Shown: positions 664 through 62,670 of the stretch, in pieces | Layout of the letters: every line of letters starts with the position of its first letter | How positions within the stretch are numbered: position 1 is the first letter of the stretch | Assembly: GCA_016205145.1 (NCBI GenBank) | Contig: JACQJH010000001.1 | Span: 195,501-259,500, forward strand | DNA: 64,000 bases | From: Candidatus Iainarchaeum sp. | Lineage (GTDB): Archaea; Iainarchaeota; Iainarchaeia; Iainarchaeales; JACQJH01 | Direction of reading: 5' to 3' | The notes under the pieces: model-generated | Seen by the model: only the letters and a program-made list of their open reading frames with translations | Told to the model about the DNA's origin: nothing | Databases searched by the model: none | Position numbers and translations under genes: made by a program

Positions 664-774
664 CCCGGCGATTTCGTCCGCCGGGTTCGACGACGGGTAT
701 TCTTCGCAAACCATTGGTTTGCGACGTGCCCAGAATCTTCGGATTCTGGAGCATCGCTTCGCTCAATACCCCTC
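664..774 (+). repeat. Intergenic composite element: D/E hairpins with module B inserted in the second hairpin loop (L30e-rpoA'' spacer)
   Basis: CGGCGATTTCGTCCGCCG GGTTCGACGAC GGGTATTCTTCGC [AAACCATTGGTTTGCGACGTGCCCAGAATCTTCGGATTCTGGAGCATCGC] TTCGCTCAATACCC. The bracketed 50 nt are module B. Confidence 0.75.
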
Positions 775-794
775 TGTCCGCCTTTAAATCTCTT

Positions 795-2060
795 TCACTT
801 GCCCCCCTTCATCACCAATTCGACTATTCCCGTGCCGACTTTTATCGGCTGGCCGACGATTATGTTTTCAACGACGCCTTCAAGGTTTTCGACTTCGCCC
901 TTGAATGCCGCGTCAAGCAGATGCTTTATTGTTTCCTCGAACGCGGCTCTCGCGAACGGCGAGCTTTTCTCGCGCGTTATTCCCGTCCTGACTATGCCCT
1001 TGATGTCGCCGCTGTAAGTCATCATGTCCGCAAGCAAAATGATGTGCCTGACGTCGACGGCGATTCCGTTGTCGTCAAGCGTCTTCTTGAGTTCCTTGAC
1101 AATCATGGCTCTCGCAGCCTCTATTCCGAAAACCTTGCTGATTTCCATGACATCGTTTGTCGTGGTCCTCGCGGGATCGATTTCCTTGAGCTTCAAAACG
1201 CTTTTCATGTTGCTGCCGGAAGTCTTGATGACGAACTCGCCTTTTTCCTCGACAAGAAGCGTCTTTGTTATGCCCTTCACGCCCTGCACCCTTGAATTCA
1301 GCAGCTTCAGCAAGTGCTTCCTTATTTTCAGCAGGGATTCCTTTTTTGAAAACGAGAATTCGACGACGTTCTTGCGCTGCCTCGCCTCGCCAAGCTTTAG
1401 GCCGGTCTTGATTTTGTCGACAAGGTCTTTTTCGTCGACGTTTCTCGCCTCGGCCTTGGCTTCGTCGATTTCTATCTGCAGCACGTTGTTGGCAAAGTTT
1501 TCCTTCACGCTGACAACGTCGGAAATCCTGACGTCCAAGAGAGATTTGGCAAACTTGTCGGCTTCCTTGCCGTTTTTTCCAAGCCCGCCGTCCAGATAAA
1601 TCGTCATTGTCGGATACTTGGCTTTGCTCCTGCCGTCGACTATCTCTTCAACCCTCTGGATTCCCGAGCCGACTGAAACTTCCGCTGCGCCCGCATAGTG
1701 CTTTGTCCTCAAAGTAAGCTGGGTTGCCGGCTCGCCAAGCGACTGCGCGGCGACAATGCCGACAGCTTCGCCCGGTTCAACGACAAGGTTTTCATAGCGC
1801 TCCTTTATTTTTTCCGCCAGAATGCCCGCTTTTTCCCTGCTCATGTTCTTTTTTTCCGCAAACAAGACGATTTCGTCAAGCACTTTTTTCGGCAGTTCGA
1901 CTTTTTCCCAGGAGCGGAGCTCTATTTTCGGGATTTCACGGTCCTTCCTGCTTTTTTCCTCGGCCTCTTCGGCAACTTCTTCAGCTTCTTCTTCGGCCTC
2001 TTCGCTGTCCTCAAGGGCTTCGTCTTTTTTTTCCGGGGTTTTCTTTTTCTTTGCCGCCAT
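795..2060 (-). CDS. rpoA2: DNA-directed RNA polymerase subunit A'' (C-terminal part of the split largest subunit)
   Basis: 421 aa with an acidic/basic N-terminal tail, then motifs conserved in RpoA'' (VVEPGEAVGIVAAQSLGEPATQLTLRTKHYAGAAEVSVGSGIQRVEEIVDG). Confidence 0.9.
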   Translation of the reverse strand: MAAKKKKTPEKKDEALEDSEEAEEEAEEVAEEAEEKSRKDREIPKIELRSWEKVELPKKVLDEIVLFAEKKNMSREKAGILAEKIKERYENLVVEPGEAVGIVAAQSLGEPATQLTLRTKHYAGAAEVSVGSGIQRVEEIVDGRSKAKYPTMTIYLDGGLGKNGKEADKFAKSLLDVRISDVVSVKENFANNVLQIEIDEAKAEARNVDEKDLVDKIKTGLKLGEARQRKNVVEFSFSKKESLLKIRKHLLKLLNSRVQGVKGITKTLLVEEKGEFVIKTSGSNMKSVLKLKEIDPARTTTNDVMEISKVFGIEAARAMIVKELKKTLDDNGIAVDVRHIILLADMMTYSGDIKGIVRTGITREKSSPFARAAFEETIKHLLDAAFKGEVENLEGVVENIIVGQPIKVGTGIVELVMKGGK

Positions 2061-2069
2061 TTTTTCACA

Positions 2070-4682
2070 TCAGTTTTCGATTTTCTTTATTTCCTCTTCA
2101 ACGTCAATCGTCTTGCCCCTGCGGGTTTTGCGCGGGAACACTCCGTCCTCGCCGTAAACGAACTGCACGACATTCCTGTTGGCCGTCCTTACGGTTGCGT
2201 CGTTCCACACGGTCAGGTCCTTGAGGCTGTTGGCAAGGCGCCTGTACAGGTAGCCTGAAACCTTTGTCGAAACGCCCGTGTCGACTTCACCCTGCCTTCC
2301 GCCCATTGCGTGGTAGAAATATTCCTTCGGGTGCATTCCCTCGAGGAAATTCTGCTGGATGAAGCCGCCCGCCAGCGCTCCAACGTCGCCTTTCTTGTTG
2401 TGGGTTATGAGCCTTTTGTCAAAGCCCTTTTTCGGCCTTCCTTCCCTTACAGAGGCCTGGCCCCAGAAGCCTGAAATGTTCATGAGGTTCGTGCTCGAAC
2501 CGCGGCTGCCCGAAATTATCATCACGGTCGTGTTGAGTTTCGGGTTTTCCGTGAGAACATCCTGCTGGAGCTTTTCCTTCAAAATTTCCTTTTCGACCTT
2601 CGCCTTGACTTCCGAGCCCAGCCTCATCATGCTGATTTCAAAGCTCTCGTCCAGGGTCCTGCCCGGAATGATGTGCAGGGTTCCCTTATTGTACTTGTCG
2701 ACCAGCTCCCTGCCCTTTTCAAGCTCTTCCTGGATTGCCCTGTCCTTGGCCCTCTTTATGGTGTCGCTTACCTCGTATTCGTCCAGGCCGACTGTCATGC
2801 CCTTCTTTGTCAGCAGATCGCCTATGATGCGGCTGATCCTGTAATAGAATTCCTCAAGCACTTCGCTCGGATAATTCCTTGCCAGCGCATCCGCAATCCT
2901 TCCCCTGCCCTCGCCCAGGCCGGCTTCGTCTATGACACCGGAAACGAGCTTTCCGTTTTTTATGCGCACGAAAGCGTCAAACCTGTCATATTCTTCGACG
3001 GTCTTCTCCTTCACAAGGCCCGCGTCCTCAAGCAGCTTGCACATGTTCGACTTGAATTCGAGGTTCAAATCCTGCGGCAGCATCAATGAAAAGATCAGCT
3101 TTCCGGAATACCTTTTGCCTAAGTCGGGCTTGGGCATTTCAGTGAGGCCGATTTCGTAAAAGTATTTCATCGCCTCTTCCCTTGAAAACGTCGTCGATTT
3201 CATTGTGAGCGCGAACGCGCCTGAAATGCCGTCCTCGTCCATGATTATGACCGGTGCGCCGTACCTCGGCGAAACTATCTGGTCCCTGACAAGCATCAAT
3301 TGCCTTGCCTCGGTCTTGCCTTCCTCTGTCTGCGGCACATGCATGTTCATTTCGTCGCCGTCGAAGTCCGCGTTGTAAGGCTTGCAGACAATCGGATTGA
3401 TCCTGAACGTTCGGCCCGGCATTACCCTGACAAAGTGCGCCATCATTGAAAGCCTGTGCAGTGAGGGCTGCCTGTTGAACAAGACAATGTCGCCGTCCTG
3501 CAGCTTCCTTTCAACCCTGAAGCCGATGTCCAGTTCCGCAAGGATCTCTTCCTTCATTTCCTCGGAAACCTTCTTGCGCGTTCCGTTCGGCCTGATGATG
3601 TAGCTGATTTCGTCGCCGTGCTTTATCATCTTCTCGATTTCCTTCTTGTTGTATTCGGTAACCGCTTCCGGCACTGTAAGTTCGTCGGCGATTTCCTTCG
3701 GCACGCCGAGCTCGCTTATCTTGATGTAAGGGTCCGGCGTTATCGTCGAGCGCGCGGCAAAGTTGACGCGCTTTCCCGTCAAATTGTGGCGGAACCTTCC
3801 CTTCTTTCCCTTGAGCCTCTGAACAAGAGTGCGCAAGGCCCTTCCGCTTCTGTGCTTTGCCGGCGGCACGCCCGCCGTTTCATTGTCAAAATAAGTGGTA
3901 ACGTGGTATTGCAGCAGGTCCCACAAATCCTCGATTATGAGCTGCGGCGCGCCCGCATCGATGTTGTCCTTCAATCTCAGATTTATCCTGATGATGTCGA
4001 CAAGCTTGTGCGTCAGGTCGTCCTCGGACTTTATGCCCGACTCGAGTGTTATGGACGGCCTGATTGTTATCGGCGGAACCGGAAGAACCGTTATTATGAA
4101 CCATTCCGGCTTGATTATTTCCGGATTGTAGCCGAAAAGCTTAAGGTCATCGACTGAAATCTTTTCAACCCATTCCCTTATCTGAGTGGGATAGATGCGG
4201 TCCTTGTCCAAATAGAAGTTTGTCGGCTTGTCCAGTGAAACCGCGCCCCTGTCAGCATTGCAGTGCGGGCATTTCCTTGACTTCTTCGCTTTCGCAACAA
4301 CTGTCTTGCTCAAATCCTTTCCGGGCACGTGGCCGTCGCGCACTTCCTTGAGCTTGTCGTCCTTGATTGAAATTTTGCCGCAGCTCTGGCAGGTCGCGTT
4401 CATCAGACTTTCAAGCTTCCTTCCGAATTCGGGATGGATTATCGGCCTGACAAGCTCCATGCTGCCGAAGTGGCCGGGGCACTGCTTCATTTTCTGGCCG
4501 CATGTCTTGCACCTAAGGCCCGGGTTTATGACTCCGAGATGCGGGTCCATGAGGCCGCCTTCCATCGGATAACCGTCCTTGTCGTACGTTTCCGGAGTCT
4601 TGATTTCAATCGCAGACATTTTCCTTATCTGCGAAGGGTTCAGCATAAGAAACTGCACGCTTTCAATCCTTTTTGCCAGCAT
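2070..4682 (-). CDS. rpoA1: DNA-directed RNA polymerase subunit A'
   Basis: 870 aa containing the zinc-binding N-terminus (CKTCGQKMKQCPGHFG), the NADFDGDEMN catalytic motif and other Rpb1-like blocks. Confidence 0.95.
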   Translation of the reverse strand: MLAKRIESVQFLMLNPSQIRKMSAIEIKTPETYDKDGYPMEGGLMDPHLGVINPGLRCKTCGQKMKQCPGHFGSMELVRPIIHPEFGRKLESLMNATCQSCGKISIKDDKLKEVRDGHVPGKDLSKTVVAKAKKSRKCPHCNADRGAVSLDKPTNFYLDKDRIYPTQIREWVEKISVDDLKLFGYNPEIIKPEWFIITVLPVPPITIRPSITLESGIKSEDDLTHKLVDIIRINLRLKDNIDAGAPQLIIEDLWDLLQYHVTTYFDNETAGVPPAKHRSGRALRTLVQRLKGKKGRFRHNLTGKRVNFAARSTITPDPYIKISELGVPKEIADELTVPEAVTEYNKKEIEKMIKHGDEISYIIRPNGTRKKVSEEMKEEILAELDIGFRVERKLQDGDIVLFNRQPSLHRLSMMAHFVRVMPGRTFRINPIVCKPYNADFDGDEMNMHVPQTEEGKTEARQLMLVRDQIVSPRYGAPVIIMDEDGISGAFALTMKSTTFSREEAMKYFYEIGLTEMPKPDLGKRYSGKLIFSLMLPQDLNLEFKSNMCKLLEDAGLVKEKTVEEYDRFDAFVRIKNGKLVSGVIDEAGLGEGRGRIADALARNYPSEVLEEFYYRISRIIGDLLTKKGMTVGLDEYEVSDTIKRAKDRAIQEELEKGRELVDKYNKGTLHIIPGRTLDESFEISMMRLGSEVKAKVEKEILKEKLQQDVLTENPKLNTTVMIISGSRGSSTNLMNISGFWGQASVREGRPKKGFDKRLITHNKKGDVGALAGGFIQQNFLEGMHPKEYFYHAMGGRQGEVDTGVSTKVSGYLYRRLANSLKDLTVWNDATVRTANRNVVQFVYGEDGVFPRKTRRGKTIDVEEEIKKIEN

Positions 4683-4749: not shown

Positions 4750-6567
4750 TCAAACCTTGTCCTTTATGATGAGCTTGGGGAAAACTCCCAAAGCCTTCAG
4801 CTCGTCAAGCAATAATTTGAAACTGTAACTCATTTCAATCGGATAAATGCGCGCGCTGTCGCACAAAGGGCAGAAACGCTTGTTCCTGATGACGTCGTTG
4901 ACTGCCAGCACGCCGCACCTTTCGCAGACGTATTCGACGGTCTTGTCCGAGCTTTCAATGAGCTTTTCCTGCAGCAGCATGGCCGCGCCATGCCCAACCA
5001 GTGTTTCGGCTTCCATTTCGCCGAAGCGCAGGCCGCCTTCCTTCTCTTTCCCTTCTGTCGGCTGCCTTGTCAGAATCTGCACTGGCCCGCGCGACCTGGA
5101 CTGCATCTTGTGCGCGACCATGTGGAACAGCCTCCTGTAACCGCATACGCCCACAAAAATTTCGCCTTCAAGCCTTTCGCCTGAAACCCCGTCGTAAAAC
5201 ACTTCCTTGCCGTCGCTCCTGAAACCGTAATCCGACAGCATTCCTTCAAGCGCTTCCAAAGGGGTTTCATTGAACGCAGTGCCATCAATCGCTTTCGACT
5301 TCAATGAGCCGGCCTTGCCTGCAATCATTTCCAGCAAATGCCCGATCGTCATCCTTGAAGGAATCGAATGCGGGTTAATTATCAGATCCGGCTTTATGCC
5401 TTCGGCAGTGAACGGCATGTCTGCTTCAGGTATGACCCCGCCGATGACGCCTTTCTGGCCGTGCCTGCTTGAAAACTTGTCACCGCGCTCCGGAGACATT
5501 TCGGTCCTCACCTTGACCTTGATCAATTTGTTGCCGTCCTCGCTTTCAGTCACGATAACTTTGTCAACATATCCCGGCTTGCCCTTGCGCGTTATCACGG
5601 AGCTTTCCCTTCTCTTTTCCTTGACAACGCCGAACTCGGATATTTCCTCCAAAAACCTTGGAGGCGAGGTTCTTCCGACGATTATTTCCTTTTCCTTGAC
5701 TTCTGCCTCAACTCTCACAAGGCCGTCCTCTCCAAGATTCTTGTAGGCATCCTCTCCAAGATAGCCTTCGACGTCTTCCGCCGGAATCTCAAGCTTGTCC
5801 TTCTGCCCGCCCGGATACCTGTTCTCGGTTCCGTCGTACGTCCTGTAATATGCGGCCCTTCCGAGGCCCCTTTCAACCGAGCCCTCGTTCAGCACAAGAG
5901 CGTCCAAGACATTGAAACTGTAAAACGGCATGATCGCAACGACAAAGTTCTGGTTCTGCGGCCTCTTGTCCACGCCGATGAAATCCATGACTTTCGTTTT
6001 CACAAGATGCGACTGAGGATAGTAAAGCAAAAAGCCCTCGGTGTCCGTGCGCAAATTCATGTTGATTGCCGGAATGCCAAGCGCCTGCTTGAACATTTTT
6101 GCGCCGTGCAATGCCTTGCCCGCCATGTTATGCGTAAGGTACGGGATCATGGAAGTGATGAGCGAAAAAACCGCGGAAGCGTCAATCTCAAGATGCGTGT
6201 GCTCGTTCGAAAGCTCGTCCTCGGAAACCGCGACAAAAGCGTTTTCCTCCTCTTCGGAGTCAAGGTACTCTATTATGCCCTTGCTTATCAGGTCGTTCCA
6301 CGAAAACTTGCCTTCCTTCGCCATGCGCACGTGCTCGTCCGTCAGCAACGGCCTGCCGTTCTCAACAATAATGAGGGGCCTCTGCACCCTTCCGGAATCG
6401 GTGTTGATGTAAACCTCGTTCGTCTGCCTGTTCAAGGCAACATTCACGAGATGCGAGATTTTTCCGGAACGCCTCGACTTTATGAGCTCCTGCGTCAGTT
6501 TCTCAGGGCTCTCATGGAAACCAATGAGCCTTCCGTTGATGTAAACCTTTCCGATTTCCGCCATCAT
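4750..6567 (-). CDS. rpoB1: DNA-directed RNA polymerase subunit B' (C-terminal half of split subunit B)
   Basis: 605 aa with Rpb2 C-terminal motifs (GQKGVIG, SRMTIGHLLE, zinc ribbon CERCG...CPLC). Confidence 0.9.
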   Translation of the reverse strand: MMAEIGKVYINGRLIGFHESPEKLTQELIKSRRSGKISHLVNVALNRQTNEVYINTDSGRVQRPLIIVENGRPLLTDEHVRMAKEGKFSWNDLISKGIIEYLDSEEEENAFVAVSEDELSNEHTHLEIDASAVFSLITSMIPYLTHNMAGKALHGAKMFKQALGIPAINMNLRTDTEGFLLYYPQSHLVKTKVMDFIGVDKRPQNQNFVVAIMPFYSFNVLDALVLNEGSVERGLGRAAYYRTYDGTENRYPGGQKDKLEIPAEDVEGYLGEDAYKNLGEDGLVRVEAEVKEKEIIVGRTSPPRFLEEISEFGVVKEKRRESSVITRKGKPGYVDKVIVTESEDGNKLIKVKVRTEMSPERGDKFSSRHGQKGVIGGVIPEADMPFTAEGIKPDLIINPHSIPSRMTIGHLLEMIAGKAGSLKSKAIDGTAFNETPLEALEGMLSDYGFRSDGKEVFYDGVSGERLEGEIFVGVCGYRRLFHMVAHKMQSRSRGPVQILTRQPTEGKEKEGGLRFGEMEAETLVGHGAAMLLQEKLIESSDKTVEYVCERCGVLAVNDVIRNKRFCPLCDSARIYPIEMSYSFKLLLDELKALGVFPKLIIKDKV

Positions 6568-6604
6568 TCACACCTTTTTTGCCCCATTTCCCCTTTGCAA
6601 AAAT

Positions 6605-8071
6605 TCACAGCTTTTTCAGCTTGACGCCTCTGCCGTACAGGAACTCTTCAATCGGCTTTTCGTCAGTCTCGGTCGTGACTTCAACCATCAGCGAGAGGTT
6701 CTTCACCAAACCGCATTGAGGGCCGTCCGGCGTCTCAATGCCGTCAAGCCTGCCCCAGTGCGTGCCATGCACGTCGCGCGCTTCATACAGTTCGCGGTTC
6801 TTGTTCAGGGGACTCTTGACTTTCCTCAAATCCGTGAGAGGCGACAGGAAGTTGACCCTGTCCATGAACTTTGAAACGCCCGTCGACCTGCCGATCCAGT
6901 TGCCCGTCGACATGGCAAACCTGACGCGCTCTGTCACTGCGCCCGGCCTGACAATCGTTGAAATGTTGAGTTTCCTTCTCCTTGTAATAGTGCGGTCGAT
7001 CTGGAACCTCAAATCCTTTATGAAATACTTGAAAGAATACCTGAACAAATGTTCCATGAGCTTGCCCGACAATTCAAGGCGCTTGTTGGCATAATGGTCC
7101 TTGTCGTCCTCGCCGCGCAAATTGTAAGTCCTTTCAACTGCTTTTTCGGCCATCATGACAAGGTAATAAGCTTTCGCAAGCCTCGACTCCTTTGCCTGCC
7201 CGATGTGCGGCAAAAGGAAAGCGTCGATGACTTCCTGCGCCCTCTTCAGCCTGTAATCGATGACCTGTCCGGGCGCGACATACTTTCCGATCTTGTCCAA
7301 AGCCTCTTTCTCGTCGGTTATCTCGCAGTTCTCAAGGTTCAACAGCACGTCGTTCTGGATTTCAACGCCGTCGGAGAACGCGCTTGAAATTTCCTTGTCG
7401 GACTTGAGGCCAAGCGCCCTCAAAAGCACGAACAGCTTCAGCTTCCTCGGCGAAGCGGGGAATGTTACTGACAGCAACCCATCAGGTTTCCTTGAAATCC
7501 TGACCCTGCCCTTGAACGCCCCCTTCGTCGAAATGACTTCCGAAATGACGCCTTTCACGCTTTCGGATATCATGACCCTGTCTGACGCGAGCACTTCCTG
7601 CGTCATCAAAGCCTTCTCGGAACCGTTGATGATGAAATAGCCGCCGAAATCCATGGGGTCCTCGCCCATTTCAACCAATTCATCCTCGCTCTTGTCCTTG
7701 AGCCAGCAGAGGTTCGACTTCAACATTATCGGCATTTCGCCGATGTAAGTGCGCTTGACATCCTGTTCAACGTCCCTTCTGAGCAGCCTCATTGTAATGT
7801 ACAGCGGACCGGAATAGGTGCGGTTCCTGATCCTGGCCTCCATTGGATAAAATTGCAGTCTCGGGCTTCCGTCAGCTTCGACTATGCGCGGCTTCAAGAC
7901 TTCTATGTCCGACAATTCGATTTTGACTTCCTCTATCTTCGGGATGATTTCGCCGTTTTCCGACACGATTTCCGGAAGCTTCTTTTCAATGAACTGGTTG
8001 AAAGAGTCGACTTCCATCTTGGCGATGCTTCTGTTCAGAAAATAAGAGTCGATTAGGGGCCATTTATCCAT
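6605..8071 (-). CDS. rpoB2: DNA-directed RNA polymerase subunit B'' (N-terminal half of split subunit B)
   Basis: 488 aa with an Rpb2 N-terminal (protrusion/lobe) sequence. Lies immediately upstream of rpoB' in the operon. Confidence 0.9.
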   Translation of the reverse strand: MDKWPLIDSYFLNRSIAKMEVDSFNQFIEKKLPEIVSENGEIIPKIEEVKIELSDIEVLKPRIVEADGSPRLQFYPMEARIRNRTYSGPLYITMRLLRRDVEQDVKRTYIGEMPIMLKSNLCWLKDKSEDELVEMGEDPMDFGGYFIINGSEKALMTQEVLASDRVMISESVKGVISEVISTKGAFKGRVRISRKPDGLLSVTFPASPRKLKLFVLLRALGLKSDKEISSAFSDGVEIQNDVLLNLENCEITDEKEALDKIGKYVAPGQVIDYRLKRAQEVIDAFLLPHIGQAKESRLAKAYYLVMMAEKAVERTYNLRGEDDKDHYANKRLELSGKLMEHLFRYSFKYFIKDLRFQIDRTITRRRKLNISTIVRPGAVTERVRFAMSTGNWIGRSTGVSKFMDRVNFLSPLTDLRKVKSPLNKNRELYEARDVHGTHWGRLDGIETPDGPQCGLVKNLSLMVEVTTETDEKPIEEFLYGRGVKLKKL

Positions 8072-10151: not shown

Positions 10152-10469
10152 TCATTTTATCGCCTTTCCCGTCGCCACCGCCTCGCTGACGATGCCTATC
10201 CGCCTGGCTTTTTCCTCGAATTCTTCGGGCGTATAGCACAGGCTTTCAAGCTGCTGTTTTTCGTTCCAGTAATCGTACATTTTTTCCATTCTGCTGAAAA
10301 AATTGGTCCCCTCAAACTTCTTGCTGACGATTATGAAATCATAGTCGGATTCTTCCAAAGCCCCGCCTTTGGCCCTTGAACCGAAAAGGATTATTCTGGC
10401 GTCCGAGAAATCCTTTTTGACTTTGTGCGCGAATGCAGCGATTATTTGCTTATCTGTTTTTCCGCCCAT
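10152..10469 (-). CDS. Nucleotidyltransferase (MNT) domain protein, antitoxin-like partner of HEPN
   Basis: 105 aa with a minimal nucleotidyltransferase motif (IILFGSRAKGGALEESDYDFIIVS). Confidence 0.8.
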   Translation of the reverse strand: MGGKTDKQIIAAFAHKVKKDFSDARIILFGSRAKGGALEESDYDFIIVSKKFEGTNFFSRMEKMYDYWNEKQQLESLCYTPEEFEEKARRIGIVSEAVATGKAIK

Positions 10470-10825
10470 TCAAAAACCTCTTTTGCGTTTTCAAGCAGTT
10501 CTTCCGCCATTTCGTCGCTGTAAGCGTCTTTTGGAATCGCGTTTGCGGCATCCGGATAGCGTGTTTGCACGTAGTGCGGATTGATTTTCCTGCAAGCTGA
10601 AACGATTTTTTCCGGCGCTTCAAGCTCTTCGGCCAATGCAATAATATTGTGCAGTGTCGTGCCCTTGTTCTTTTGCAGGATAAAAATAGCTTTCAAGGCC
10701 TTTTCAGCCGCCTGCTGGCAGTAAAACGCGCATGCGTAATAGACATCCTGCGAAAAAAGGATTTTTGCTGTTTCGAGGTCGTCTTCCGCCGCGTTAAGCC
10801 AGTCTAGGACTTCCTTGCGCATCAT
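10442..10825 (-). CDS. HEPN domain protein (toxin-like partner of MNT)
   Basis: 127-aa all-alpha protein (YYACAFYCQQAAEKALKAIF...). It overlaps the MNT gene by about 28 nt, which is the typical HEPN/MNT two-gene arrangement. Confidence 0.8.
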   Translation of the reverse strand: MMRKEVLDWLNAAEDDLETAKILFSQDVYYACAFYCQQAAEKALKAIFILQKNKGTTLHNIIALAEELEAPEKIVSACRKINPHYVQTRYPDAANAIPKDAYSDEMAEELLENAKEVFEWAEKQISK

Positions 10826-12602: not shown

Positions 12603-12722
12603 CTCGCCGTCATCGCCCGGCGGGTGCGAAACCAAGGCCTTCGTTGCAAAATCTTGGATTTTGCGACGTGCCCAGAATCTTTGGATTCTGGGGCATCACT
12701 GTTGTGAAAGACCGAGTGAGCT
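12603..12722 (+). repeat. Intergenic H1'-H2 element with module B in the H2 loop
   Basis: CGCCGTCATCGCCCGGCGGG TGCGAAACCAAGGCCTTCG [TTGCAAAATCTTGGATTTTGCGACGTGCCCAGAATCTTTGGATTCTGGGGCATCAC] TGTTGTGAAAGACCGAGTGAGC. Confidence 0.75.
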
Positions 12723-12762: not shown

Positions 12763-15160
12763 TCAGCTTGCCAGCCTTCCGAAAATGCCGAACAGGTTGT
12801 TGAAATTATTGCTCTCTTCTCCGAGGCTTTTTATCTGCTCGTCAAGCAGTGCAATCGTTTCCTTGTCGGCTGAGCCGCTTGCCTCAAGCTTTGCCTTGAT
12901 TTCATTCAGCTTTTCCGATCTTTCCTTCAGTTTTGCCGCATAATCGCCGTTGCCAACAAGCTTGTCAACAAACCCAAGCTTCTCCTTGTCCTGCACGGTC
13001 ATGTCGGCAGTGGCGCCAAGCTGGTTTGCAAGCGCGGGATCGGATTCCGCCCATTTGGATGCAATCTTGTAAAGGTCTTCCTGAACTCCAATTTTGGCTT
13101 CCCCGCCGTATGCAACGCCGAACTTCCTGCACATGTTATCGACTACAAGCCTTGCTGTCTGATCGGGGTTCCTTTCGGCATTAAGGCATTGCTTTGCCGC
13201 CTGCTTTTTGGCTTCGCACCTCAAGGCAGCTTCCGCCTTGCATTTTGCCGCCTCAAGCCTCATCCTGTCCAAACCGGCTGAAACCTGGCTGCCGGCCTGC
13301 CTGCACATTGAAGTAGCCTGCGCTTCACTTGGGAAAAACCTTGTCATGTTCTGCGCGTCGCCCAAAAACTGTTCGACTATTTCATCATCGGTCATTTCGC
13401 ACAATTCTTCAGGCGACGGTCCCGGTCCCATGGGTCCGCCGAAACCGCCTTGCGGTCCTTGCGGCCCGAAACCCTGGCCGCCAAAGCCCTGTCCTTGTCC
13501 GCCCTGCATTCCGCCAGGTCCGACACCCGGCCTTATACAGTTGCCCTGCTTGCTTGGGTCAGGATATTCGCCTGGCGGGCATTGCCCTTGCCCCTGCTGG
13601 TTCGGTCCGCCGAATGGCCCGCCCTGTCCGAATCCTTGTCCCTGCTGCTGCATAGGCTGGCCTATTCCCTGATTGGGGAACGGTCCCTGGTTTGGAGAAT
13701 TCGGCAGCATGAGGCCGTTCGGCCCCTGTTGCATTCCGAATCCGAAATTGTTAAGCACGTCGTTTGTCTGCATGACCGGCTGGCCATTCTGCATTTGCTG
13801 CGGCTGGACGTTTTGCTCTGCAACCTGCTGCTGTTCAGCCTGTGGAGCCTGCACTATTTCTTCAGCGCTTTGGCTCAGGCTTTCATCCGCTTTCTGCTCG
13901 GCTTCCTGGAGCCTTGCAAGGATTGCAAGCATTGTCGGCGAAGAAATTGAAATTTCATCCGAAGCGGTTGCACCGCCATCGGTTGGCGCGGGTGCTGGTT
14001 CTGGTGCCGGGGCAGGTGCGGGTTCAGGCGCTGGAGCCGGTTCTGGCTGCGGAGCAGGCTGCTGCTGTTCCACCTGCGGTTGCTGCTCGCCTTGAGGCTG
14101 TTGTTGCTGCTGGTCTTGCGGCGGCACGTATCCAGGCGGAGGAGAATTGCACTGGTAGCTTCCGGTATTGCAGTTCCATCCGAACTCACATTGTGGCGGC
14201 TGTCCCTGGCATCCGTTTGGTCCGGGTCCCTGTTGCGGTGGACCGAATCCCTGCGGTTCGGACCTTTGCTGTTCCCAGCCGCGCTGTTCAAATCCCGGTC
14301 CTTGGTTGCGATATTGAGAGTTAATGCATCCGCCCCTTCCATCCGGTTCAGAGCCTTCGCCACATGGCATTTGCTGGTTTCCGCCCTGTCCCGGTCCGCG
14401 CGGCCCGAAATTTGTCGGCAACTGCGGTCCGAATCCTTCCTGGCCCTCGAATTCTTTCATTTTTGAGCATTCGTCTCTGAACTTTGAAATCTGCTGCCTT
14501 ATCTTTTCCTTCTGCTTTTCAAGCTGCCCGGCGATTTTTTCCTTTTCCTTGTTCAGCCTGGCAAGGCAAACATTTTGAATCAGTTCGGGTGTCATGTCCT
14601 TCAAAGTCAGGCTGTCAGGGTCATAGCCTGCGTCCCTCATGTCCTTTTTCTTGTCAGCAGGAATTGGCATTTTTCCTTCGCTGATCTGGCTACAGAACAA
14701 CTGCGAATCAGAATCGCACGAGCTTGACTCCGCGTCTATTGTGCCGCACGCGGTTGGAGCATCCTCTTTTATCGCGCCGACAATTTCGTTTGTCAAAGCG
14801 TCCCTGTCGGTTTTGCAGCCCTCAATGAACTTTGCGCTGTTTGATGCAACCCAAGTGTAGGCGGTCGTCATTGCCTTTGTGACGTCCTCTTCAGCCACGT
14901 ATTGCGAGTCGGCAAAGCTTGATGAAACATAGCTGTCTATTCCCATGCCGGAATCAAAGCCGAATCCGCCAAATCCCTGCTCGTCTTGCTGTCCGCCGAA
15001 GCCTTGCTGCTGGCCGAAACCCTGCTGGAAACCCTGGCCTTGGCCCTGCTGCGGAAACTGTCCCTGCTGCGGAAACTGCGCAAACGCCAAGCCGGCAAAA
15101 ACCGCGAACGCGAAAAGCAATGCGATTATTCCAATGCCTTTTTTCTGCAAATTGACCACT
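12763..15160 (-). CDS. Secreted low-complexity Q/G/P-rich, Cys-rich protein (cell-surface candidate)
   Basis: Signal peptide (KKGIGIIALLFAFAVFAGLAFAQ) followed by QGQGFQQGFGQQQGFGG tracts, PEPAPAPEPAPAPAPEPAPAP repeats, many Cys, and a coiled-coil-like C-terminus. The track ORF runs on to 15585, but its first ~140 codons cross the intergenic hairpin repeat, so the likely start is a GTG/TTG near 15160. Confidence 0.6.
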
Positions 15161-15213
15161 GTCAAAGCAAAGTTTAATCCCCTATTTAAGCTTTGCTTTT
15201 TAGCTTTTCGAAC

Positions 15214-15273
15214 CGGCGGTTTCGTCCGCCGGGTCCGAAACCAAGGCGTATTGCTGATGCAATACGCCGAGTA
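15214..15273 (+). repeat. Intergenic H1-H2 element without insertion
   Basis: CGGCGGTTTCGTCCGCCGGG TCCGAAACCAAGGCGTATTGCTGATGCAATACGCCGAGTA. The first 40 nt are identical to the tRNA-Lys trailer. Confidence 0.8.
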
Positions 15274-15341
15274 TGCCAGCATATGATGCAAAAGTGCACA
15301 CTTGGCTTGTATTTGTGCCTGCAACCGGAATCGTTTTTCTT

Positions 15342-16523
15342 TTACCAGCCGTAGCTTTTCGCGCGCGAATACTGCAGGGCTGAGAAAACGCGGATTGTTT
15401 TGAGCTTTGGCAGTTTTGGGTTTGCCAGCAGCCTCAATCCGACAAGCAGCTTGTCCGAAAACGTCAGGCTTGTCAGGTTTTCCGGCATTATGCCGCCCAT
15501 TTCGTTCAGCTTTTTCTCGTCGAAAGTGTAAAGGCTTTTCTTTCCGCCGATAATGGAACCGTAATTGGGGAACTCCTTTCTCCATTTTTCAGAGTATTCC
15601 GCGAAAGCCTTTTCCGAAAAATCGTTTTGCTTCGCCGCCTTCGCAATCGTTTCCGCGCAAAGCCTGCCTGACATGAGTGAAAGAGCCGTGCCGCCTTCAA
15701 ACATCGGGGACGTAAAACCTGCCGCATCTCCGACCAAGGCAAACCTTTCCCCGCACGTTTTCGAAACCGGCCCGGATTCCGGTATGAGCCCGCCGAAAGT
15801 TTTTGTCACCTTCTTGTCCTCGAGCCGCATTTCCCTGATGAAACCGTCAAGGAATGCCTTTGCTTTTCCCTTTTCATTCGTAACTATTCCGACATTCGCC
15901 CTGTTCCCGCTTTTCGGGATAATCCAGGCATAACCGTGCGGCGCGAATTTGGTGGAAAAAAAGAAGTCGATTAAATCCTGGTCGACCAGGCCGTGCATTT
16001 CAACCTGCACGCCAATCACTGTTTCAGGTTTCCTGTTGATTCCGGTTTTCTGCGAAAAAACCGACGTCGGGCCGGAAGCATCGACAACGGTTTTGGCAAT
16101 GAATGTTCCGCCGCTGGTCTGTATGCGCCATCCTTCCGTGTCTTTCACGAACTGTTCCGCCCGCGTGTTCAAAAAGATTTTTGCGCCGGCTGCCTGCGCC
16201 TCGCCCACAATGAACCTTTCAAACTTGTGCTTTTCGAGCACAAAGCCTTTTTCGCGCACAACGGAATTCTTTCCGTTCGGAAAAATCACGCGGATGCCTT
16301 CAACGCGCTTTGAAATCACGCTGTCGGGCAGCTTCAGGCCGATCCTGTCAACCGCCAGTTCGGAAAGGCATTCGCCGCAGTGCACGGGTTCGCCAACCGC
16401 GGGGTGCTCTTCAATCACGCAAACACTGAGGCCGAGCCTGGCGCAATGCAATGCAGTTGAGCCTCCGGCCGGGCCCGAGCCTATGACCGCGACATCAAAA
16501 ACGTTTTCAGCCAAGCAAAACAA
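15342..16523 (-). CDS. Geranylgeranyl reductase family FAD-dependent oxidoreductase (digeranylgeranylglycerophospholipid reductase-like)
   Basis: N-terminal FAD-binding fold (DVAVIGSGPAGGSTALHCARLGLSVCVIEEH). Length (393 aa) and motifs fit GGR. Confidence 0.85.
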   Translation of the reverse strand: MFCLAENVFDVAVIGSGPAGGSTALHCARLGLSVCVIEEHPAVGEPVHCGECLSELAVDRIGLKLPDSVISKRVEGIRVIFPNGKNSVVREKGFVLEKHKFERFIVGEAQAAGAKIFLNTRAEQFVKDTEGWRIQTSGGTFIAKTVVDASGPTSVFSQKTGINRKPETVIGVQVEMHGLVDQDLIDFFFSTKFAPHGYAWIIPKSGNRANVGIVTNEKGKAKAFLDGFIREMRLEDKKVTKTFGGLIPESGPVSKTCGERFALVGDAAGFTSPMFEGGTALSLMSGRLCAETIAKAAKQNDFSEKAFAEYSEKWRKEFPNYGSIIGGKKSLYTFDEKKLNEMGGIMPENLTSLTFSDKLLVGLRLLANPKLPKLKTIRVFSALQYSRAKSYGW

Positions 16524-20608: not shown

Positions 20609-21097
20609 GTGGTTTGCATGAACAGGCAAACGCTTTTCAGGCTCGCTGCTTCAATCGCAATCTGCGGGCTTGCCGGCGCAGTCGGCTCAATCTTCACGTT
20701 TCCCGCAATCGCTTCGTGGTATGCGTCAATCAACAAGCCTTACTTCACTCCGCCGAACTGGGTTTTCGGCCCGGTTTGGACAGCGCTTTTCCTGCTCATG
20801 GGCATAGCGCTTTTCCTTGTGTGGGAAAAAGGCTTTCAGGAAAAGGAAAACAAGTTCGCGGTAAAGGTTTTCGGCGCACAGCTCGCCTTGAACGTTTTGT
20901 GGTCACTGCTTTTCTTCGGCCTGCACAACCCTTTCCTAGCAATGATTGAAATCGTTGCGCTCTGGCTGGCGATTGCCGCGACAACCATTCTGTTCAGCCG
21001 CATCGACAGGCGCGCGGCTTTGCTGCTGCTGCCTTACCTTGCGTGGGTTTCATTTGCGGCGTTCCTCAACTATTCGGTCTGGCTTTTGAACGCCTGA
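20609..21097 (+). CDS. tspO: TspO/MBR family tryptophan-rich sensory protein
   Basis: 162 aa with five TM helices and conserved Trp-rich blocks (PNWVFGPVWTALFLLMG...LAWVSFAAFLNYSVW). Confidence 0.85.
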   Translation: MVCMNRQTLFRLAASIAICGLAGAVGSIFTFPAIASWYASINKPYFTPPNWVFGPVWTALFLLMGIALFLVWEKGFQEKENKFAVKVFGAQLALNVLWSLLFFGLHNPFLAMIEIVALWLAIAATTILFSRIDRRAALLLLPYLAWVSFAAFLNYSVWLLNA

Positions 21098-21126
21098 AAA
21101 AAGCAGGTTTACTCGGCGTGTCGCGC

Positions 21127-21463
21127 AGCGGCACGCCTTAATCCCGACGCAGGGGGCTCCGCCCCCTTGCAAACCCCTGAAACATTTACCGCTACTTACT
21201 CGGCGGTTCACAACGTGAACCGCCTTGGTTTCGGCACACGCGCCCGAAAGCGCGTTGTCCTTTGTTAATGCAAAAGCAGATGGGTACGGCGCAACAGCGA
21301 AATATCCGTCGTCGAGCCCGCTTGTGAAATCATCGCCATCAGGCGCAGCGCTATGCGAGCAAAGCGAGCGCAGGGGTTGCACCCCTTGCGAACCCTGCAA
21401 AGCATGCGTGGTGTTCCGCAGCAGCGCGAACACCACAAAGCGCACCAGCCGGGCGTGACGGCT
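21127..21463 (-). repeat. tRNA-Asp 3' trailer: two consecutive hairpin cassettes (about 340 nt)
   Basis: First unit: AAGCCGTCACGCCCGGCTGG ... GGGGTGCAACCCC TGCG ... GGGCTCGACGACGGATATTTCGCTG...GTACCC. Second unit: CCGAAACCAAGGCGGTTCACGTTGTGAACCGCCGAGTAAG ... GGGGGCGGAGCCCCC TGCG TCGGGATTAAGGCGTGCCGCTGCGCGACACGCCGAGTAAACC. Confidence 0.75.
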
Positions 21464-21625
21464 TCGCCCGCACCGGGAGTCGGACCCGGCCCACGGCCTC
21501 GCTGCATTGCAGTACTCCATAAAAGAAACTTTTCTTTCTTTTTGGGGTAAAGCACTTTTTCTTTCTTCGCAAGAAAGAAAAAGGGCTTCGACAGGGCCGT
21601 ATCCTAGCCGATAGACCATACGGGC
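21464..21625 (-). tRNA. tRNA-Asp(GTC) with a ~90-nt intron at the canonical 37/38 position (introns 21499..21588)
   Basis: The minus-strand 5' exon GCCCGTATGGTCTATCGGCTAGGATACGGCCCTGTCG runs through acceptor, D-arm and anticodon stem CGGCC with loop CTGTCG. The 3' exon A-GGCCG-TGGG-CCGGG-TCCGACT-CCCGG-TGCGGGC-G pairs perfectly in the anticodon and acceptor stems. The D-stem has two G-U pairs and the T-loop has C at position 55, so it may be diverged. Confidence 0.55.
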
Positions 21626-27954: not shown

Positions 27955-28506
27955 TTGGTTTATCATGGTGGTTTGTTGGACATACTGAAGGCTTTGGCCA
28001 ACTCCAACCGGCGCAACATGGTCCAGATTCTCCTCAAAAAGGAAACCCACATTGCCGCGCTCGCAAGGGAATTGAACATTTCCAATCCGGTTGCATTGAA
28101 GCACGCGCGCATTCTTGAGGATAACGGCCTGATTGAACGGGAAAAAGCGGGGAACACGCACATACTGCACATCCGCAAGGACGCGCTCAAGAAAATACGG
28201 CTGGCATCGGAGCTTTTTGAAAAGCCAATTTCTTTCAGCGTCGCGAAAGGCACTTTGCTTTTGGACGCGCTTTCAAAGGTCGATGGCCTCGAGATCGAGA
28301 ACACGAAACAGGGCGCGTTCATCAAGGCAATTGACGGCAAGGAAGGCTACTTTGTCTTTGAAATCAACGGCAAGTTTCCGACAAAGCCGATCGAGGAAAT
28401 CGAAATTTCCGGCAGGACGGAAATCGAGTTGAAGCGCCTTCTGCCCGTCATCGGAAAAAAAATCGTTTTCGAAACAGCCGGTTCCGTCCGGCTGGTCCGG
28501 GACTAA
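27955..28506 (+). CDS. ArsR-family winged-helix transcriptional regulator with C-terminal extension
   Basis: HTH region MVQILLKKETHIAALARELNISNPVALKHARILEDNGLIEREKAGNTHIL. Confidence 0.7.
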   Translation: MVYHGGLLDILKALANSNRRNMVQILLKKETHIAALARELNISNPVALKHARILEDNGLIEREKAGNTHILHIRKDALKKIRLASELFEKPISFSVAKGTLLLDALSKVDGLEIENTKQGAFIKAIDGKEGYFVFEINGKFPTKPIEEIEISGRTEIELKRLLPVIGKKIVFETAGSVRLVRD

Positions 28507-28638
28507 GGCGTATCGTTGCAAAATCTTGGATTTTGCGACGTGCCCAGAATCTGTGGATTCTGGTGCATGCTTACGCAATACGCCGAGTAATTCTATTCCG
28601 CATTTCGGGGTTTTACGCGGGGGTGTCCCATGTGTTCA
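28503..28638 (+). repeat. Intergenic H2 element with module B in the loop, plus a degenerate spacer-H3
   Basis: AAGGCGTATCG [TTGCAAAATCTTGGATTTTGCGACGTGCCCAGAATCTGTGGATTCTGGTGCATGC] TTACGCAATACGCCGAGTAATTCTATTCCGCATTTCGGGGTTTTACGCGGGGGTGTCCC. Lies between the convergent ArsR and PLP-enzyme genes. Confidence 0.75.
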
Positions 28639-29793
28639 CGCCTTTTCCAGCGCCTGCTTTAAGTCTTCAACCAAGTCGTCCGCGCTTTCCAAACCAACGG
28701 ACAAACGCACCATTGTCTCGGTTATGCCCGCTTTCCTGCGCTCGCTCTCCGGCAAAGCGCCGTGCGTCATCGCCCAAGGATATTCTATGAGGGATTCGAC
28801 CCCGCCAAGGCTCACTCCGAGAGTGAACAGATTGGTTGCAGCAAGAAACTTCTTCGCTGCAGCTGCGTTTCCTTTGAGTTCAATCGTTATTATGCCGCCA
28901 GTGCCTTTCATCTGCTTTTGCGCAAGGCCTTTCTGCGCAAAGCTTTTCAGGCCGGGATAAATGACGCGCTTCACTTTCGGATGCCTTTCAAGGAACTCCG
29001 CGATTGCCTGCGCGTTTTTTTCATGCTGCAGCATTCTCTGCTTCAAGGTCTTTATCCCGCGCAGGACAAGAAAGCAGTCCAAGGGCGAAGGCGTAGGGCC
29101 GAAGGCATTCTGCAAAAACTTCAGTTGCCTGTAAATCTTTTCGTCGTTGCATGCAATCGCGCCGCCGATGATGTCGGAATGGCCGTTGATGTACTTTGTC
29201 GTGCTGTGTATGACAATGTCGGCACCCAGGTCAAGCGGATTCTGGAAAACCGGTGACAGGAAAGTGTTGTCCACCGCCACAATCAGGCCTTTTTTGTGCG
29301 CGAGCCTTGAAATTTCCGCGATGTCAACAAGCTTCAGCAAAGGGTTTGTCGGGCTTTCAAGGTAAACCATTCCGGTGTTCGGCTTCAACGCCTTTTCAAG
29401 GCTTTCCGGTTCAGTCAGGTCCGCAAGCGAGTAATCAATGCCGAACTGCCTTTTGAATGTTTCCAGCAGCCTGAAAGTTCCGCCGTAAACATTGTCCACT
29501 GCAACAATGTGCCCGCCGCTTTTAAGCAGGCTCAGGCAGACCATTTCCGCGCCAAGGCCGGACGAGAACGCGAGGCCAAAGCGCGCGTTTTCAAGCGAGG
29601 CAACGCTTTTTTCCAGGGCATCCCTTGTCGGGTTTCCCGATCGCGAATAATCGTATCCCCGGTTTTTGTCAACCGAATCCTGTCTGAATGTTGACGACAG
29701 GTAAACTGGCGTCATGACCGCGCCGGTCAGGGGATCTGCGCCCGCTTCGTGGATCGCCCTGGTTTCGAAATCAAGCCGTTTGCCTTTAGCCAT
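28636..29793 (-). CDS. PLP-dependent cystathionine gamma-synthase / beta-lyase family enzyme (Cys/Met metabolism)
   Basis: 385 aa with the full-length Cys/Met-metabolism PLP enzyme pattern (RAIHEAGADPLTGAVMTPVYLSSTF...GNPTRDALE...SFAFSSGLGA; PLP-Lys context STTKYINGHSD). Confidence 0.9.
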   Translation of the reverse strand: MAKGKRLDFETRAIHEAGADPLTGAVMTPVYLSSTFRQDSVDKNRGYDYSRSGNPTRDALEKSVASLENARFGLAFSSGLGAEMVCLSLLKSGGHIVAVDNVYGGTFRLLETFKRQFGIDYSLADLTEPESLEKALKPNTGMVYLESPTNPLLKLVDIAEISRLAHKKGLIVAVDNTFLSPVFQNPLDLGADIVIHSTTKYINGHSDIIGGAIACNDEKIYRQLKFLQNAFGPTPSPLDCFLVLRGIKTLKQRMLQHEKNAQAIAEFLERHPKVKRVIYPGLKSFAQKGLAQKQMKGTGGIITIELKGNAAAAKKFLAATNLFTLGVSLGGVESLIEYPWAMTHGALPESERRKAGITETMVRLSVGLESADDLVEDLKQALEKA

Positions 29794-33816: not shown

Positions 33817-34140
33817 AATTTAAAAGCATATATTAGGGGGCACAATTTAAAAATTGTGTAATAATTCCCTCCTCCCTGATTTGCACAGGGGATCTCACCG
33901 TTGCCGCTTTTTTCGCGGCGCAACAGCGTTCTTTCGAACCTGCTGCCCAGCCATTCAAGGCAGTGCACAAGAGCGTGCACGAAAATCTACAGCGGTGCGT
34001 GTTAGCTACTACACCAAGGAGGGCTCGGCATGCTGCCGAGCGTGCAGCCTTGTGGTATCGCTGACGCGATACCACGCGTGCCCGCCCAAAACAGTTCCTG
34101 CCGGCTAATTATTTGTTTCACTCAATCGTTTTAAATGTTT

Positions 34141-35042: not shown

Positions 35043-35483
35043 TTAAACCTTTGTTTTCATTACGCGTTTCATGCCGGGAATTTCCACGCTTGAATAGTCG
35101 ACGCTCAGTCCTGCTTTTCCAAGCGCTTTTTTGAGCGCGTAAACCTTGCAAAACCCCGCCAACTCTTTCTGCTCGTTTTTCTGCAGGCTTTCGACTGCGG
35201 TTATCTCGTTTATCACGCCGTTGACTTTTCCGGAGGACGCTGCCTTCAGGATTTCCGCGATTTCGGCTTCCGATTTTCCGGCCGGCAGTTCGGCCAGCAT
35301 TGCGTCAAGCTTTTTCAAATCCACAAGCTTTCCGAGGTTCTGCTCCACTTTCTTGTCCACGCTTATCGTCAGGCTTGCCAGGAATTCCATTACCGTGCGC
35401 GGGTCGGTTTTCTCCTCTATCTTGAGTTTCTTGATTGCGACCCAGTCATCGTAGTTTGCGATTAATTGAATGCTCTTGTCCAC
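35043..35483 (-). CDS. Hypothetical soluble protein
   Basis: 146-aa ORF with a coiled-coil-like pattern and no motif. Confidence 0.4.
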   Translation of the reverse strand: MDKSIQLIANYDDWVAIKKLKIEEKTDPRTVMEFLASLTISVDKKVEQNLGKLVDLKKLDAMLAELPAGKSEAEIAEILKAASSGKVNGVINEITAVESLQKNEQKELAGFCKVYALKKALGKAGLSVDYSSVEIPGMKRVMKTKV

Positions 35484-35529
35484 GCTCTCACCTTGTAAAA
35501 ATAAGTTTCTGGTGGTTAAAAATCCACAT

Positions 35530-35660
35530 GCTTACTCGGCGTTTCACAACGCAGGGGCCTTTGCCCCTTGCAAACCCCCGAAATATTTGTTGTGTCCTAC
35601 TCGGCGTGTCGCATCAGCGGCACGCCTTGGTTTCGGACCCGGCGGACGAAACCGCCGAGA
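35530..35660 (-). repeat. tRNA-Lys 3' trailer: modular GC-rich hairpin cassette (H1-H2-spacer-H3-TGCG-H4)
   Basis: Reads on the minus strand directly after the discriminator: H1 CGGCGGTTTCGTCCGCCG; H2 TCCGAAACCAAGGCGTG...CACGCCGAGTAGG; spacer ACAACAAATATTTCGGGGG; H3 GGGGCAAAGGCCCC; then TGCG and a half-H4 ending GCCGAGTAAGC. Confidence 0.8.
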
Positions 35661-41276: not shown

Positions 41277-41420
41277 CGTCATCGCCCGGAGCCGTCACGT
41301 CCGGCTGATACGTGCGGCACGTAAAGTGCCGCTGCCTCGCTGTTGCTCGGAACCGGCGGGTGCGACGTTGAGGATTCTCACTGCATTCGAATCCTCTGCC
41401 TGCTTAATTAGTTTTTTTGC
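41277..41420 (+). repeat. Variant nested hairpin element downstream of hppA
   Basis: TCGCCGTCATCGCCCGG [AGCCGTCACGTCCGGCTG ATACGTGCGGCACGTAAAGTGCCGC ...] CGGCGGGTGCGAC GTTGAGGATTCTCACTGCATTCGAATCCTC: an H1' hairpin split by an inserted H1-like hairpin, followed by a B-like hairpin. Confidence 0.6.
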
Positions 41421-47041: not shown

Positions 47042-47070
47042 AAACTCAATTCGGTTAGGCTATGATTTTT

Positions 47071-62303: not shown

Positions 62304-62305
62304 GT

Positions 62306-62604: not shown

Positions 62605-62670
62605 ATTCGGCGGTTTCGTCCGCCGGGTTCGACGACGGGTACTTCGCTGCGCTCAGTACCCATCTGTTCT
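62605..62670 (-). repeat. tRNA-His 5' leader hairpins (module D/E)
   Basis: Plus strand CGGCGGTTTCGTCCGCCG GGTTCGACGAC GGGTACTTCGCTGCGCTCAGTACCC. Near-identical copies lie at 664..706 (plus) and 21307..21350. Confidence 0.7.

Follow-up and report, generated by a model that had tools for sequence, protein, structure and literature searches.

A 54-nucleotide, two-hairpin element inserted into the intergenic hairpin repeats of a DPANN archaeon

Module B is a real, gene-less DNA element of 52–54 nt that consists of two back-to-back hairpins, and it has been inserted repeatedly into the variable hairpin (H2) of the mosaic repeats of a Diapherotrites (DPANN) archaeon. We studied it in a 64-kb stretch of genomic DNA (the window) and on metagenome contigs of related organisms. 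We favor, with a probability of roughly 55%, a reading of B as a miniature, non-autonomous mobile element whose movement depends on a HUH/Y1-type enzyme encoded elsewhere and acting in trans on single-stranded DNA; the enzyme step is one that we infer.

The window encodes, on its minus strand, RNA polymerase in split subunits (A'/A'', 795–4682; B'/B'', 4750–8071). Ribosomal protein L30e, a full his operon and further housekeeping genes are encoded in it as well. By RpoA'', the closest GTDB representatives are Iainarchaeota/DPANN MAGs at no more than 66% identity, which makes the source an uncultured member of the DPANN archaea with barely sampled close relatives. The window also carries an adjacent pair of HEPN (127 aa) and nucleotidyltransferase (105 aa) genes (10152–10825, minus strand), as is typical of toxin-antitoxin modules.

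Module B and its host repeats

The window holds three near-identical copies of B, and the core of the element, GCGACGTGCCCAGAATC, occurs in it exactly three times, always on the plus strand, versus 0.15 occurrences expected by chance. The copies are as follows, with covariance-model scores where given:

702..753, plus strand: Module B copy 1, 52 nt; CTTCGCAAACC-ATT-GGTTTGCGACG + TGCCCAGAATC-TTCG-GATTCTGG-A-GCA; 70 bits, E 3e-16
12642..12695, plus strand: Module B copy 2, the copy described in the initial annotation, 54 nt; two abutting 27-nt imperfect hairpins; 86.6 bits, E 1e-20
28514..28567, plus strand: Module B copy 3, 54 nt; differs from copy 2 at two positions (loop 2 and the bulged N)

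Two further distinct copies lie on metagenome contigs of related organisms, L007 and L008 (the same as L009), likewise within host units of the H1–linker–H2 kind described below. A covariance model built from all five copies (three from the window plus L007 and L008) retrieved the three window copies with 70–87 bits (E = 1e-16 to 1e-20), and beyond these it returned from the window only the reverse strands of the same palindromes and nothing else convincing. The exact core and the covariance model thus bear out the three copies originally listed, but not a fourth, 'diverged' copy at 41380–41415, which had no match to the model at E ≤ 10. The sequence that it shares, GTGCGACGTT, is a linker of the host repeats, the hairpin behind it is an ordinary one without interruption, and the same unit type also occurs in the orthologous rpoA''–rpl30e spacer of a 96% relative (L093/L094), against its identity as B. 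Elsewhere, the exact core had no match in the GTDB representative genomes, a set from which the source lineage is absent; a plasmid search gave no match, and scans of viral contigs for B and for the host linker gave chance matches only. Five of the eight matches to B in the metagenome scan were likewise dismissed as chance, lying inside coding sequence without a second hairpin arm.

B has sharp boundaries in each of the five copies, with the ends 5'-CKTYGCAAA...GGNGCA-3', and is composed of two abutting 27-nt imperfect hairpins that extend exactly to both termini. The first hairpin (hp1) is CGTTGCAAAATC-TTG-GATTTTGCGACG and the second (hp2) is TGCCCAGAATC-TNNG-GATTCTGG-N-GCA. Both hp2, its loop written as TNNG, and the spacer between the hairpins are invariant, and hp2 always has one bulged nucleotide, which is A, G, T, G and C in the five copies. 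A T.G pair is present in hp1 of four of the five copies, and the hp1 stem of copy 1 is shortened. The termini (CGTTGC... and ...GGNGCA) are not inverted repeats, and on direct reading they match as such at only 7 of 12 positions. Direct reading also upheld the original description of B as a two-hairpin unit, although the coordinates first assigned to it did not hold, and the 3' 'RGCATSRC' included in them extends into host sequence. The compensatory variation reported for hp1 is real but thin: it is confined to copy 1, in which one U-A pair is replaced by C-G and one base pair is deleted from both arms, and a formal count on a MAFFT alignment showed no double-sided change.

The hosts of B form a lineage-specific, REP/BIME-like mosaic of hairpin modules: H1 (for example, CCGGCGG-TTTCGT-CCGCCGG), a linker, the variable hairpin H2 and a tail. 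About 17 host units occur in the window, all of them intergenic and modular. A typical unit has the conserved linker GYKCGRAACCAAG and the tail CGAGTAAG, and the conserved host flanks (...AACCAAGG and CGAGTAAG) contain no GTAG. H2 is a 9–10 bp hairpin whose stem sequence varies between copies while its complementarity is kept. Type-a units, the second kind, combine the linker GTTCGACGAC and the tail CTCTGTYC with a hairpin of 7 bp and a loop of 11 nt. Two host units are frequently joined by H3, a G-rich module; modules within one cluster are co-oriented, and host units occur in both orientations in the window. The units that bear on B in the window are:

664..779, plus strand: host unit of copy 1 (type a), between the rpoA'' stop and the rpl30e promoter; H1 666–685, linker TTCGACGAC, split hairpin GGGTATT^[B]^TCGCTTCGCTC-AATACCC (695–701 + 754–771), tail CTCTGTCC
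12604..12721, plus strand: host unit of copy 2 (type b); H1, linker GCGAAACCAA, split hairpin GGCCTT^[B]^TCAC-TGTT-GTGAAAGACC (12636–12641 + 12696–12713), tail GAGTGAGC
28476..28591, plus strand: host unit of copy 3 (type c); H1, linker, split hairpin GGCGTAT^[B]^TGC-TTAC-GCAATACGCC (28507–28513 + 28568–28584), tail GAGTAAT
15245..15268, plus strand: empty type-c H2, the comparator for copy 3; GGCGTATTGC-TGAT-GCAATACGCC
62637..62661, plus strand: empty type-a hairpin, the comparator for copy 1; GGGTACT-TCGCTGCGCTC-AGTACCC, within the unit 62608–62672
41362..41400, plus strand: uninterrupted host unit, not a B copy; linker GCGACGTT + hairpin GAGGATTC-(11 nt)-GAATCCTC + TGCC

The empty type-c and type-a hairpins confirm that B lies inside hairpins that are uninterrupted elsewhere, as had been proposed; no empty type-b hairpin was seen. 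The L007 copy sits in the same type-b unit as copy 2, with a perfect stem (GGTCTT). Across 80 loci from reference DPANN genomes, the host family was all but missing. No Rfam family matched either the host repeats or B, permissive scans of both giving chance-level matches only, and the gathering-score scan of the window returned only tRNAs.

Two side observations concern the host units themselves. The loop of H1 (GGTTTCG) is complementary to the downstream linker (CGAAACC), and the two covary (TTCCG/CGGAA and TTTCGG/CCGAAA, plus U.G variants) in units at 15213–15246, 28476–28509, 35624–35657 (minus strand), 63001–63034 (minus strand) and 21229–21262 (minus strand) and on L008. Over these six distinct units, H1 and the pseudoknot helix are 100% paired, five pairs are changed on both sides, and none of 500 shuffles reached the covariation score; judged from these sequences, the pairing would form either an H-type pseudoknot or an alternative hairpin. 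We dropped an attempt to choose the structurally active strand from wobble pairs, as hp1 and the host pseudoknot have T.G on the plus strand but the H2 mismatches are C.A there, a mixed signal.

The other observation is that all five minus-oriented clusters of host modules (21100–21465, 35530–35658, 35900–36084, 62300–62377 and 62880–63028) lie directly 3' of tRNA genes (Asp, Lys, Thr, His and Leu), on the tRNA strand. H1 starts 0–3 nt past the tRNA 3' end in four of the clusters and about 31 nt past it for tRNA-Thr, an arrangement suggesting that the modules either target tRNA 3' ends for insertion or have a function in tRNA trailers. Long mechanical ORFs run across repeat clusters and tRNA genes (12763–15585, 21050–21619 and 62288–62809, minus strand; 35435–35740, plus strand), and naive gene callers would over-call such repeat-spanning ORFs or give them wrong starts. 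The repeats thus mislead ORF callers, and they also break short-read assemblies of this lineage.

The insertion junction

From each of the five copies we removed the segment running from C[G/T]T[T/C]GCAAA to GATTCTGG-N-GCA and joined the flanks, which produced a canonical host hairpin in every case. Four of the restored hairpins are H2 hairpins with a 10-bp stem and a 4-nt loop, two of them with one stem mismatch; the fifth, from copy 1, is of type a:

Copy 3 (28514), type c: GGCGTAT^TGC-TTAC-GCAATACGCC
Copy 2 (12642), type b, one stem mismatch: GGCCTT^TCAC-TGTT-GTGAAAGACC
L007, type b, perfect stem: GGTCTT^TCAC-TGTT-GTGAAAGACC
L008, type c, one stem mismatch: GGCGTAT^TGC-CGTT-GCAACACGCC
Copy 1 (702), type a, 7-bp stem and 11-nt loop, matching the empty hairpin at 62637–62661: GGGTATT^TCGCTTCGCTC-AATACCC

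When both deletion endpoints were slid by up to 8 nt (289 combinations), the boundaries that we had chosen were the single optimum for copy 3 and L007, and for copy 3 and L008 no other boundaries came as close, in edit distance, to real empty units. In copy 1, edit distance to the empty unit leaves an ambiguity of 1–2 nt in the boundary, and the minimum-energy criterion is uninformative because the empty host has an 11-nt loop.

Because excision rebuilds the host hairpin, B interrupts the 5' arm of the host stem. The insertion point lies 6–7 nt from the base of the stem, which in copy 1 is the boundary between stem and loop, and the junction is T^T in all five copies. The nesting is thus not loop-specific, as B had been thought to sit in the host loop but actually splits the stem arm. 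The initial annotation had also recommended looking for target-site duplications at the junctions; none was found in any of the five copies, and the real empty sites retain both T's. The 5' flanks of the insertion are GTAT, CCTT or TCTT, and TATT, so that only T(-1) and T(+1) are constant over the five copies. The orientation of B relative to its host unit is the same in all five, even though the hairpin shows the same arm sequence on both strands. Filled sites are predicted to fold as three- or four-way junctions, both as RNA and as single-stranded DNA (z = -6.7 to -9.3). The filled unit of copy 3 makes a perfect four-way junction with no unpaired junction nucleotides (z = -9.3 as single-stranded DNA), and the predicted fold brings the two ends of B together at the branch point.

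The junctions do not have the geometry of an archaeal intron. In the bulge-helix-bulge (BHB) motif, two 3-nt bulges are separated by a 4-bp helix, and the splice sites lie in the bulges. We scored the canonical helix-bulge-helix-bulge-helix register, which has 12 pairs, using four tRNA introns of the window as controls. The tRNA-His intron scored 12/12, as did that of the tRNA called 'Asp 33866' by ARAGORN, which is a tRNA-Tyr(GTA), after a 2-nt boundary correction; the intron of tRNA-Asp at 21465 scored 9/12, and that of tRNA-Cys at 46932 scored 3/12 at the ARAGORN boundaries and 7/12 within ±4 nt. At the boundaries that restore the host, the copies of B scored 4–5/12. Sliding the boundaries by 4 nt raised this to 9–10/12, with a different offset for each copy, and in a shuffled-sequence null with sliding boundaries 54% of trials reached at least 9 and 0.1% reached 12/12. 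We therefore rejected B as a BHB intron, and the suggestion that B is a processed RNA module spliced into its hosts, for which BHB geometry at the junctions had been the proposed check, is not supported.

With introns allowed, ARAGORN called five extra tRNAs, with introns of 34–153 nt. Besides tRNA-His, four intron-bearing tRNAs had been missed by default ARAGORN, two of which (Trp and Cys) the Rfam gathering scan found:

62378–62604, minus strand: tRNA-His(GTG), 153-nt intron at 37/38, BHB 12/12
21465–21625, minus strand: tRNA-Asp(GTC), 89-nt intron
33866–34023, minus strand: tRNA-Tyr(GTA), called Asp by ARAGORN, 85-nt intron, boundaries shifted by 2 nt
41590–41737, minus strand: tRNA-Trp(CCA), intron-containing
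46932–47042, minus strand: tRNA-Cys(GCA), 34-nt intron

The tRNA-His intron consists largely of 4–5 tandem copies of a 36-nt hairpin-forming repeat (62390–62568), an unusual expansion; a 10-mer, TTCGCAAACC, common to this repeat and copy 1 of B is no more than chance would give in 64 kb. Right at the 5' end of the intron-bearing tRNA-Trp ends an ORF of 258 aa (41722–42498, minus strand) that has a LAGLIDADG_3 domain (E 1.7e-5) and may be a homing-endonuclease-like gene beside an intron-bearing tRNA.

Movement, mechanism and alternatives

The case for movement comes from five copies of B in three host-stem types, at five unrelated loci: rpoA''/rpl30e; an LPG-synthase gene and a gene for a 795-aa protein; HTH and Cys/Met-PLP genes; HerA/transglutaminase; and beta-CASP/AspRS, the latter two being the loci of the metagenome copies L007 and L008. 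Copies 2 and 3 differ at 2 of 54 positions in B and at 12 of 24 in their host hairpins, whereas copy 3 and L008, which share a host stem type, differ at 6 of 54 in B and 5 of 24 in the host. The likeness of B therefore does not follow the likeness of the host, and the near-identity of B in the unlike hosts of copies 2 and 3 argues for independent insertion; gene conversion could also explain the near-identity of these two copies. In three sequencing runs, short-read contigs that match the window at 100% identity terminate inside B, as expected for a multi-copy repeat, which suggests that the genome contains more copies. Logan assemblies, which are independent but come from the same strain, have the same filled state or break in B and are hence uninformative on polymorphism.

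The spacer between rpoA'' and rpl30e (539–794) could be compared with those of relatives (L093/L094, L095, L165 and L166), whose relatedness we give as RpoA'' identity. The window, the 96% relative and the 90% relative have three different mosaics at this orthologous locus, with B only in the window, which indicates that the repeat spacers turn over quickly; a promoter-like box, TTTAAAAAG, is kept. Host modules are absent from this spacer in the 69–73% relatives, where it comprises 48 nt or unrelated AT-rich hairpins, and the host family is confined to a narrow clade. The other two window loci offered no orthologous empty site for comparison, the Cys/Met-PLP gene beside copy 3 having no close archaeal ortholog, the 795-aa gene no ortholog above 44% identity and the LPG-synthase product no record. 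The best non-self matches of the Cys/Met-PLP enzyme (28636–29793, minus strand; about 58% identity) are cystathionine gamma-synthases of Brocadiales/Planctomycetes, and its gene was probably acquired horizontally.

How might such an element move? The absence of target-site duplication and of terminal inverted repeats (TIRs), the end hairpins with a conserved bulge or mismatch, the fixed orientation and the hairpin targets lead us to propose a hairpin-binding HUH/Y1-type enzyme, like the TnpA of IS200/IS605 or the REP-associated TnpA, that would act on B in trans. Such an enzyme would cut at both B junctions while the region is transiently single-stranded, releasing a 54-nt 'dumbbell' that would then be rejoined at the T^T of another extruded H2 hairpin. 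The window and contigs L007 and L008 encode no Y1/HUH transposase, TnpB, integrase or other recombinase, so the check for an encoding enzyme put forward in the initial annotation came back negative over the 64 kb. The hairpins of B are terminal and thus leave no room for subterminal guide sequences of the IS608 type, and in the five copies no conserved 4–5 nt target is apparent 5' of the insertion, which speaks against full membership in IS200/IS605. In a more radical and rather speculative version, B would represent a new class, a structure-directed single-strand 'dumbbell' mini-transposon: strand exchange into the stem of an extruded hairpin would yield a Holliday-junction-like four-way junction with the ends juxtaposed at the branch point, and B would be part of a DPANN counterpart of REP/RAYT in which one hairpin-binding enzyme serves both the host repeats and B.

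It is possible, although we think it unlikely, that B is not independently mobile. It would then have arisen long ago as an expansion of a single host hairpin and be copied only within the whole unit, the stems diverging by compensatory change while gene conversion keeps B alike. Copy 2 and L007 have in common a type-b stem with B, and copy 3 and L008 a type-c stem with B, so composites of H2 and B do move in one piece among units with different H1 and tail modules. Such co-spread fits the hypervariable yet complementary host stems and the lack of any empty type-b hairpin, and the uniform orientation of B would follow from it trivially. However, B occurs in three unrelated stems, for two of which the same genome has near-identical empty hairpins, and its similarity does not track that of the host in the comparisons given above; moreover, slow divergence would not predict that excision restores an exact hairpin of 10 bp and 4 nt. 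The initial annotation's reading of B as a structure-targeting mobile element is supported: the ends are sharp, five hairpins are rebuilt, near-identical B sits in unrelated stems, copies occur in relatives and contigs break in B.

If B is mobile DNA, it could conceivably depend on an enzyme of another class (an IS110/bridge-RNA-like DEDD enzyme, a tyrosine or serine recombinase, an integron-like system or a DDE transposase), which we judge to be quite improbable. Recombination by integron integrases takes place at a G^TT step of hairpins folded from single strands, to which the invariant T^T of B can be compared, but B lacks attC-like R and L boxes. The complete lack of target-site duplication speaks against DDE enzymes. 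The IS110 family, which is site-specific and without inverted repeats, is the commonest among the REP-targeting insertion sequences of bacteria (PMC1525189), but 54 nt is too short to encode a bridge RNA or a recombinase, and the window encodes no enzyme of any of these classes. Very unlikely, in our view, is that B acts at the RNA level, be it as a BHB intron, as some other excised or processed insert or as an expansion that makes a four-way-junction RNA. In its favor, tRNA introns abound in this organism, the structure of the host units is conserved down to their covarying loop–linker pseudoknot, many of these units directly follow tRNA genes and may therefore be transcribed, filled units fold very stably as RNA, and the T.G wobble in hp1 is tolerated on the plus strand only. 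Yet the B boundaries lack a BHB (4–5/12 pairs, shifted registers being at chance level), neither B nor its hosts match Rfam, host units occur in both orientations, and the three B-bearing units of the window are antisense to the transcription of flanking genes (copy 3 to one of its two convergent neighbors). Nor can an insert at the RNA level alone explain how one 54-nt sequence came to be copied into different hairpins of the genome.

Relation to known systems

Among known systems, the REP-targeting insertion sequences (IS) of bacteria are the closest behavioral precedent for B. These insert into REP hairpins, and joining their flanks perfectly reconstructs the palindrome (PMC1525189). Like IS1397, ISKpn1 and ISPsy8 of the IS3 family and IS621, ISPpu9, ISPpu10 and ISPa11 of the IS110 family, B has all its copies inside extragenic palindromic repeats, its flanks rebuild the palindrome, and its hosts are mosaic intergenic hairpin repeats. 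Those insertion sequences, however, are autonomous bacterial elements of 1–1.5 kb with a DDE or DEDD transposase, the IS3 members of which make short duplications, whereas B is archaeal, 54 nt long and non-coding, makes no duplication and enters a stem arm at T^T.

The IS200/IS605 family, the most widespread IS family in archaea (PMC13343696), offers a likeness in mechanism. Its substrates and those of TnpA-REP have neither target-site duplications nor terminal inverted repeats, end in hairpins with a conserved bulge or mismatch and show strand or orientation specificity (PMC3333891). B resembles IS200/IS605, PATEs and REP/REPIN-RAYT systems in lacking both features, in its imperfect, bulged end hairpins, in its fixed orientation and in the action on single-stranded DNA to be expected of it (PMC3333891, PMC3119063). 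It differs from IS200/IS605 in that no conserved tetra- or pentanucleotide target is apparent in the five copies, its hairpins are terminal rather than subterminal and there is no space for a guide, and from PATEs in being far smaller than those described. Unlike REP-RAYT systems, B and its hosts have no GTAG, and no Y1 transposase was found in the sequence examined; RAYTs have been described in bacteria. The host family itself is like REP/BIME in comprising short, extragenic, imperfect palindromes at high copy in mosaic clusters (the hairpins of B only loosely so), but its modules are co-oriented within a cluster, unlike REP/iREP pairs, which alternate in orientation.

Two other kinds of small insert share features with B. 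Archaeal BHB introns of tRNA and rRNA genes, including transposed tRNA introns, are also short, structured inserts nested in a helix, and this archaeon is rich in introns, but B has no BHB at its junctions, its host is not a known RNA gene and the identical insert occurs at unrelated loci. Classical MITEs (Correia, RUP and Sulfolobus SM) are, like B, small, non-coding, intergenic, multi-copy and strongly folding. They have terminal inverted repeats and target-site duplications and usually measure 100–400 bp, whereas B has neither and measures 52–54 nt.

DPANN archaea, with their small genomes, are usually regarded as poor in mobile DNA, and to our knowledge REP/BIME-like systems with elements that target them have been described only in bacteria; a literature search combining DPANN and REP terms gave no matches. 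B adds an exceptionally small element (two hairpins only, sharply bounded and joined to its host at T^T without duplication) within a fast-evolving archaeal family of intergenic hairpins. Should the single-strand mechanism be true, 54 nt of element and a 24-nt target hairpin would be a minimal natural substrate for hairpin-directed transposition in archaea and would point to a new enzyme in the same genome. With none of either kind described in this archaeal lineage, B is best filed as an unusually small form of two known things, the hairpin-ended non-autonomous element and the repeat-targeting insertion.
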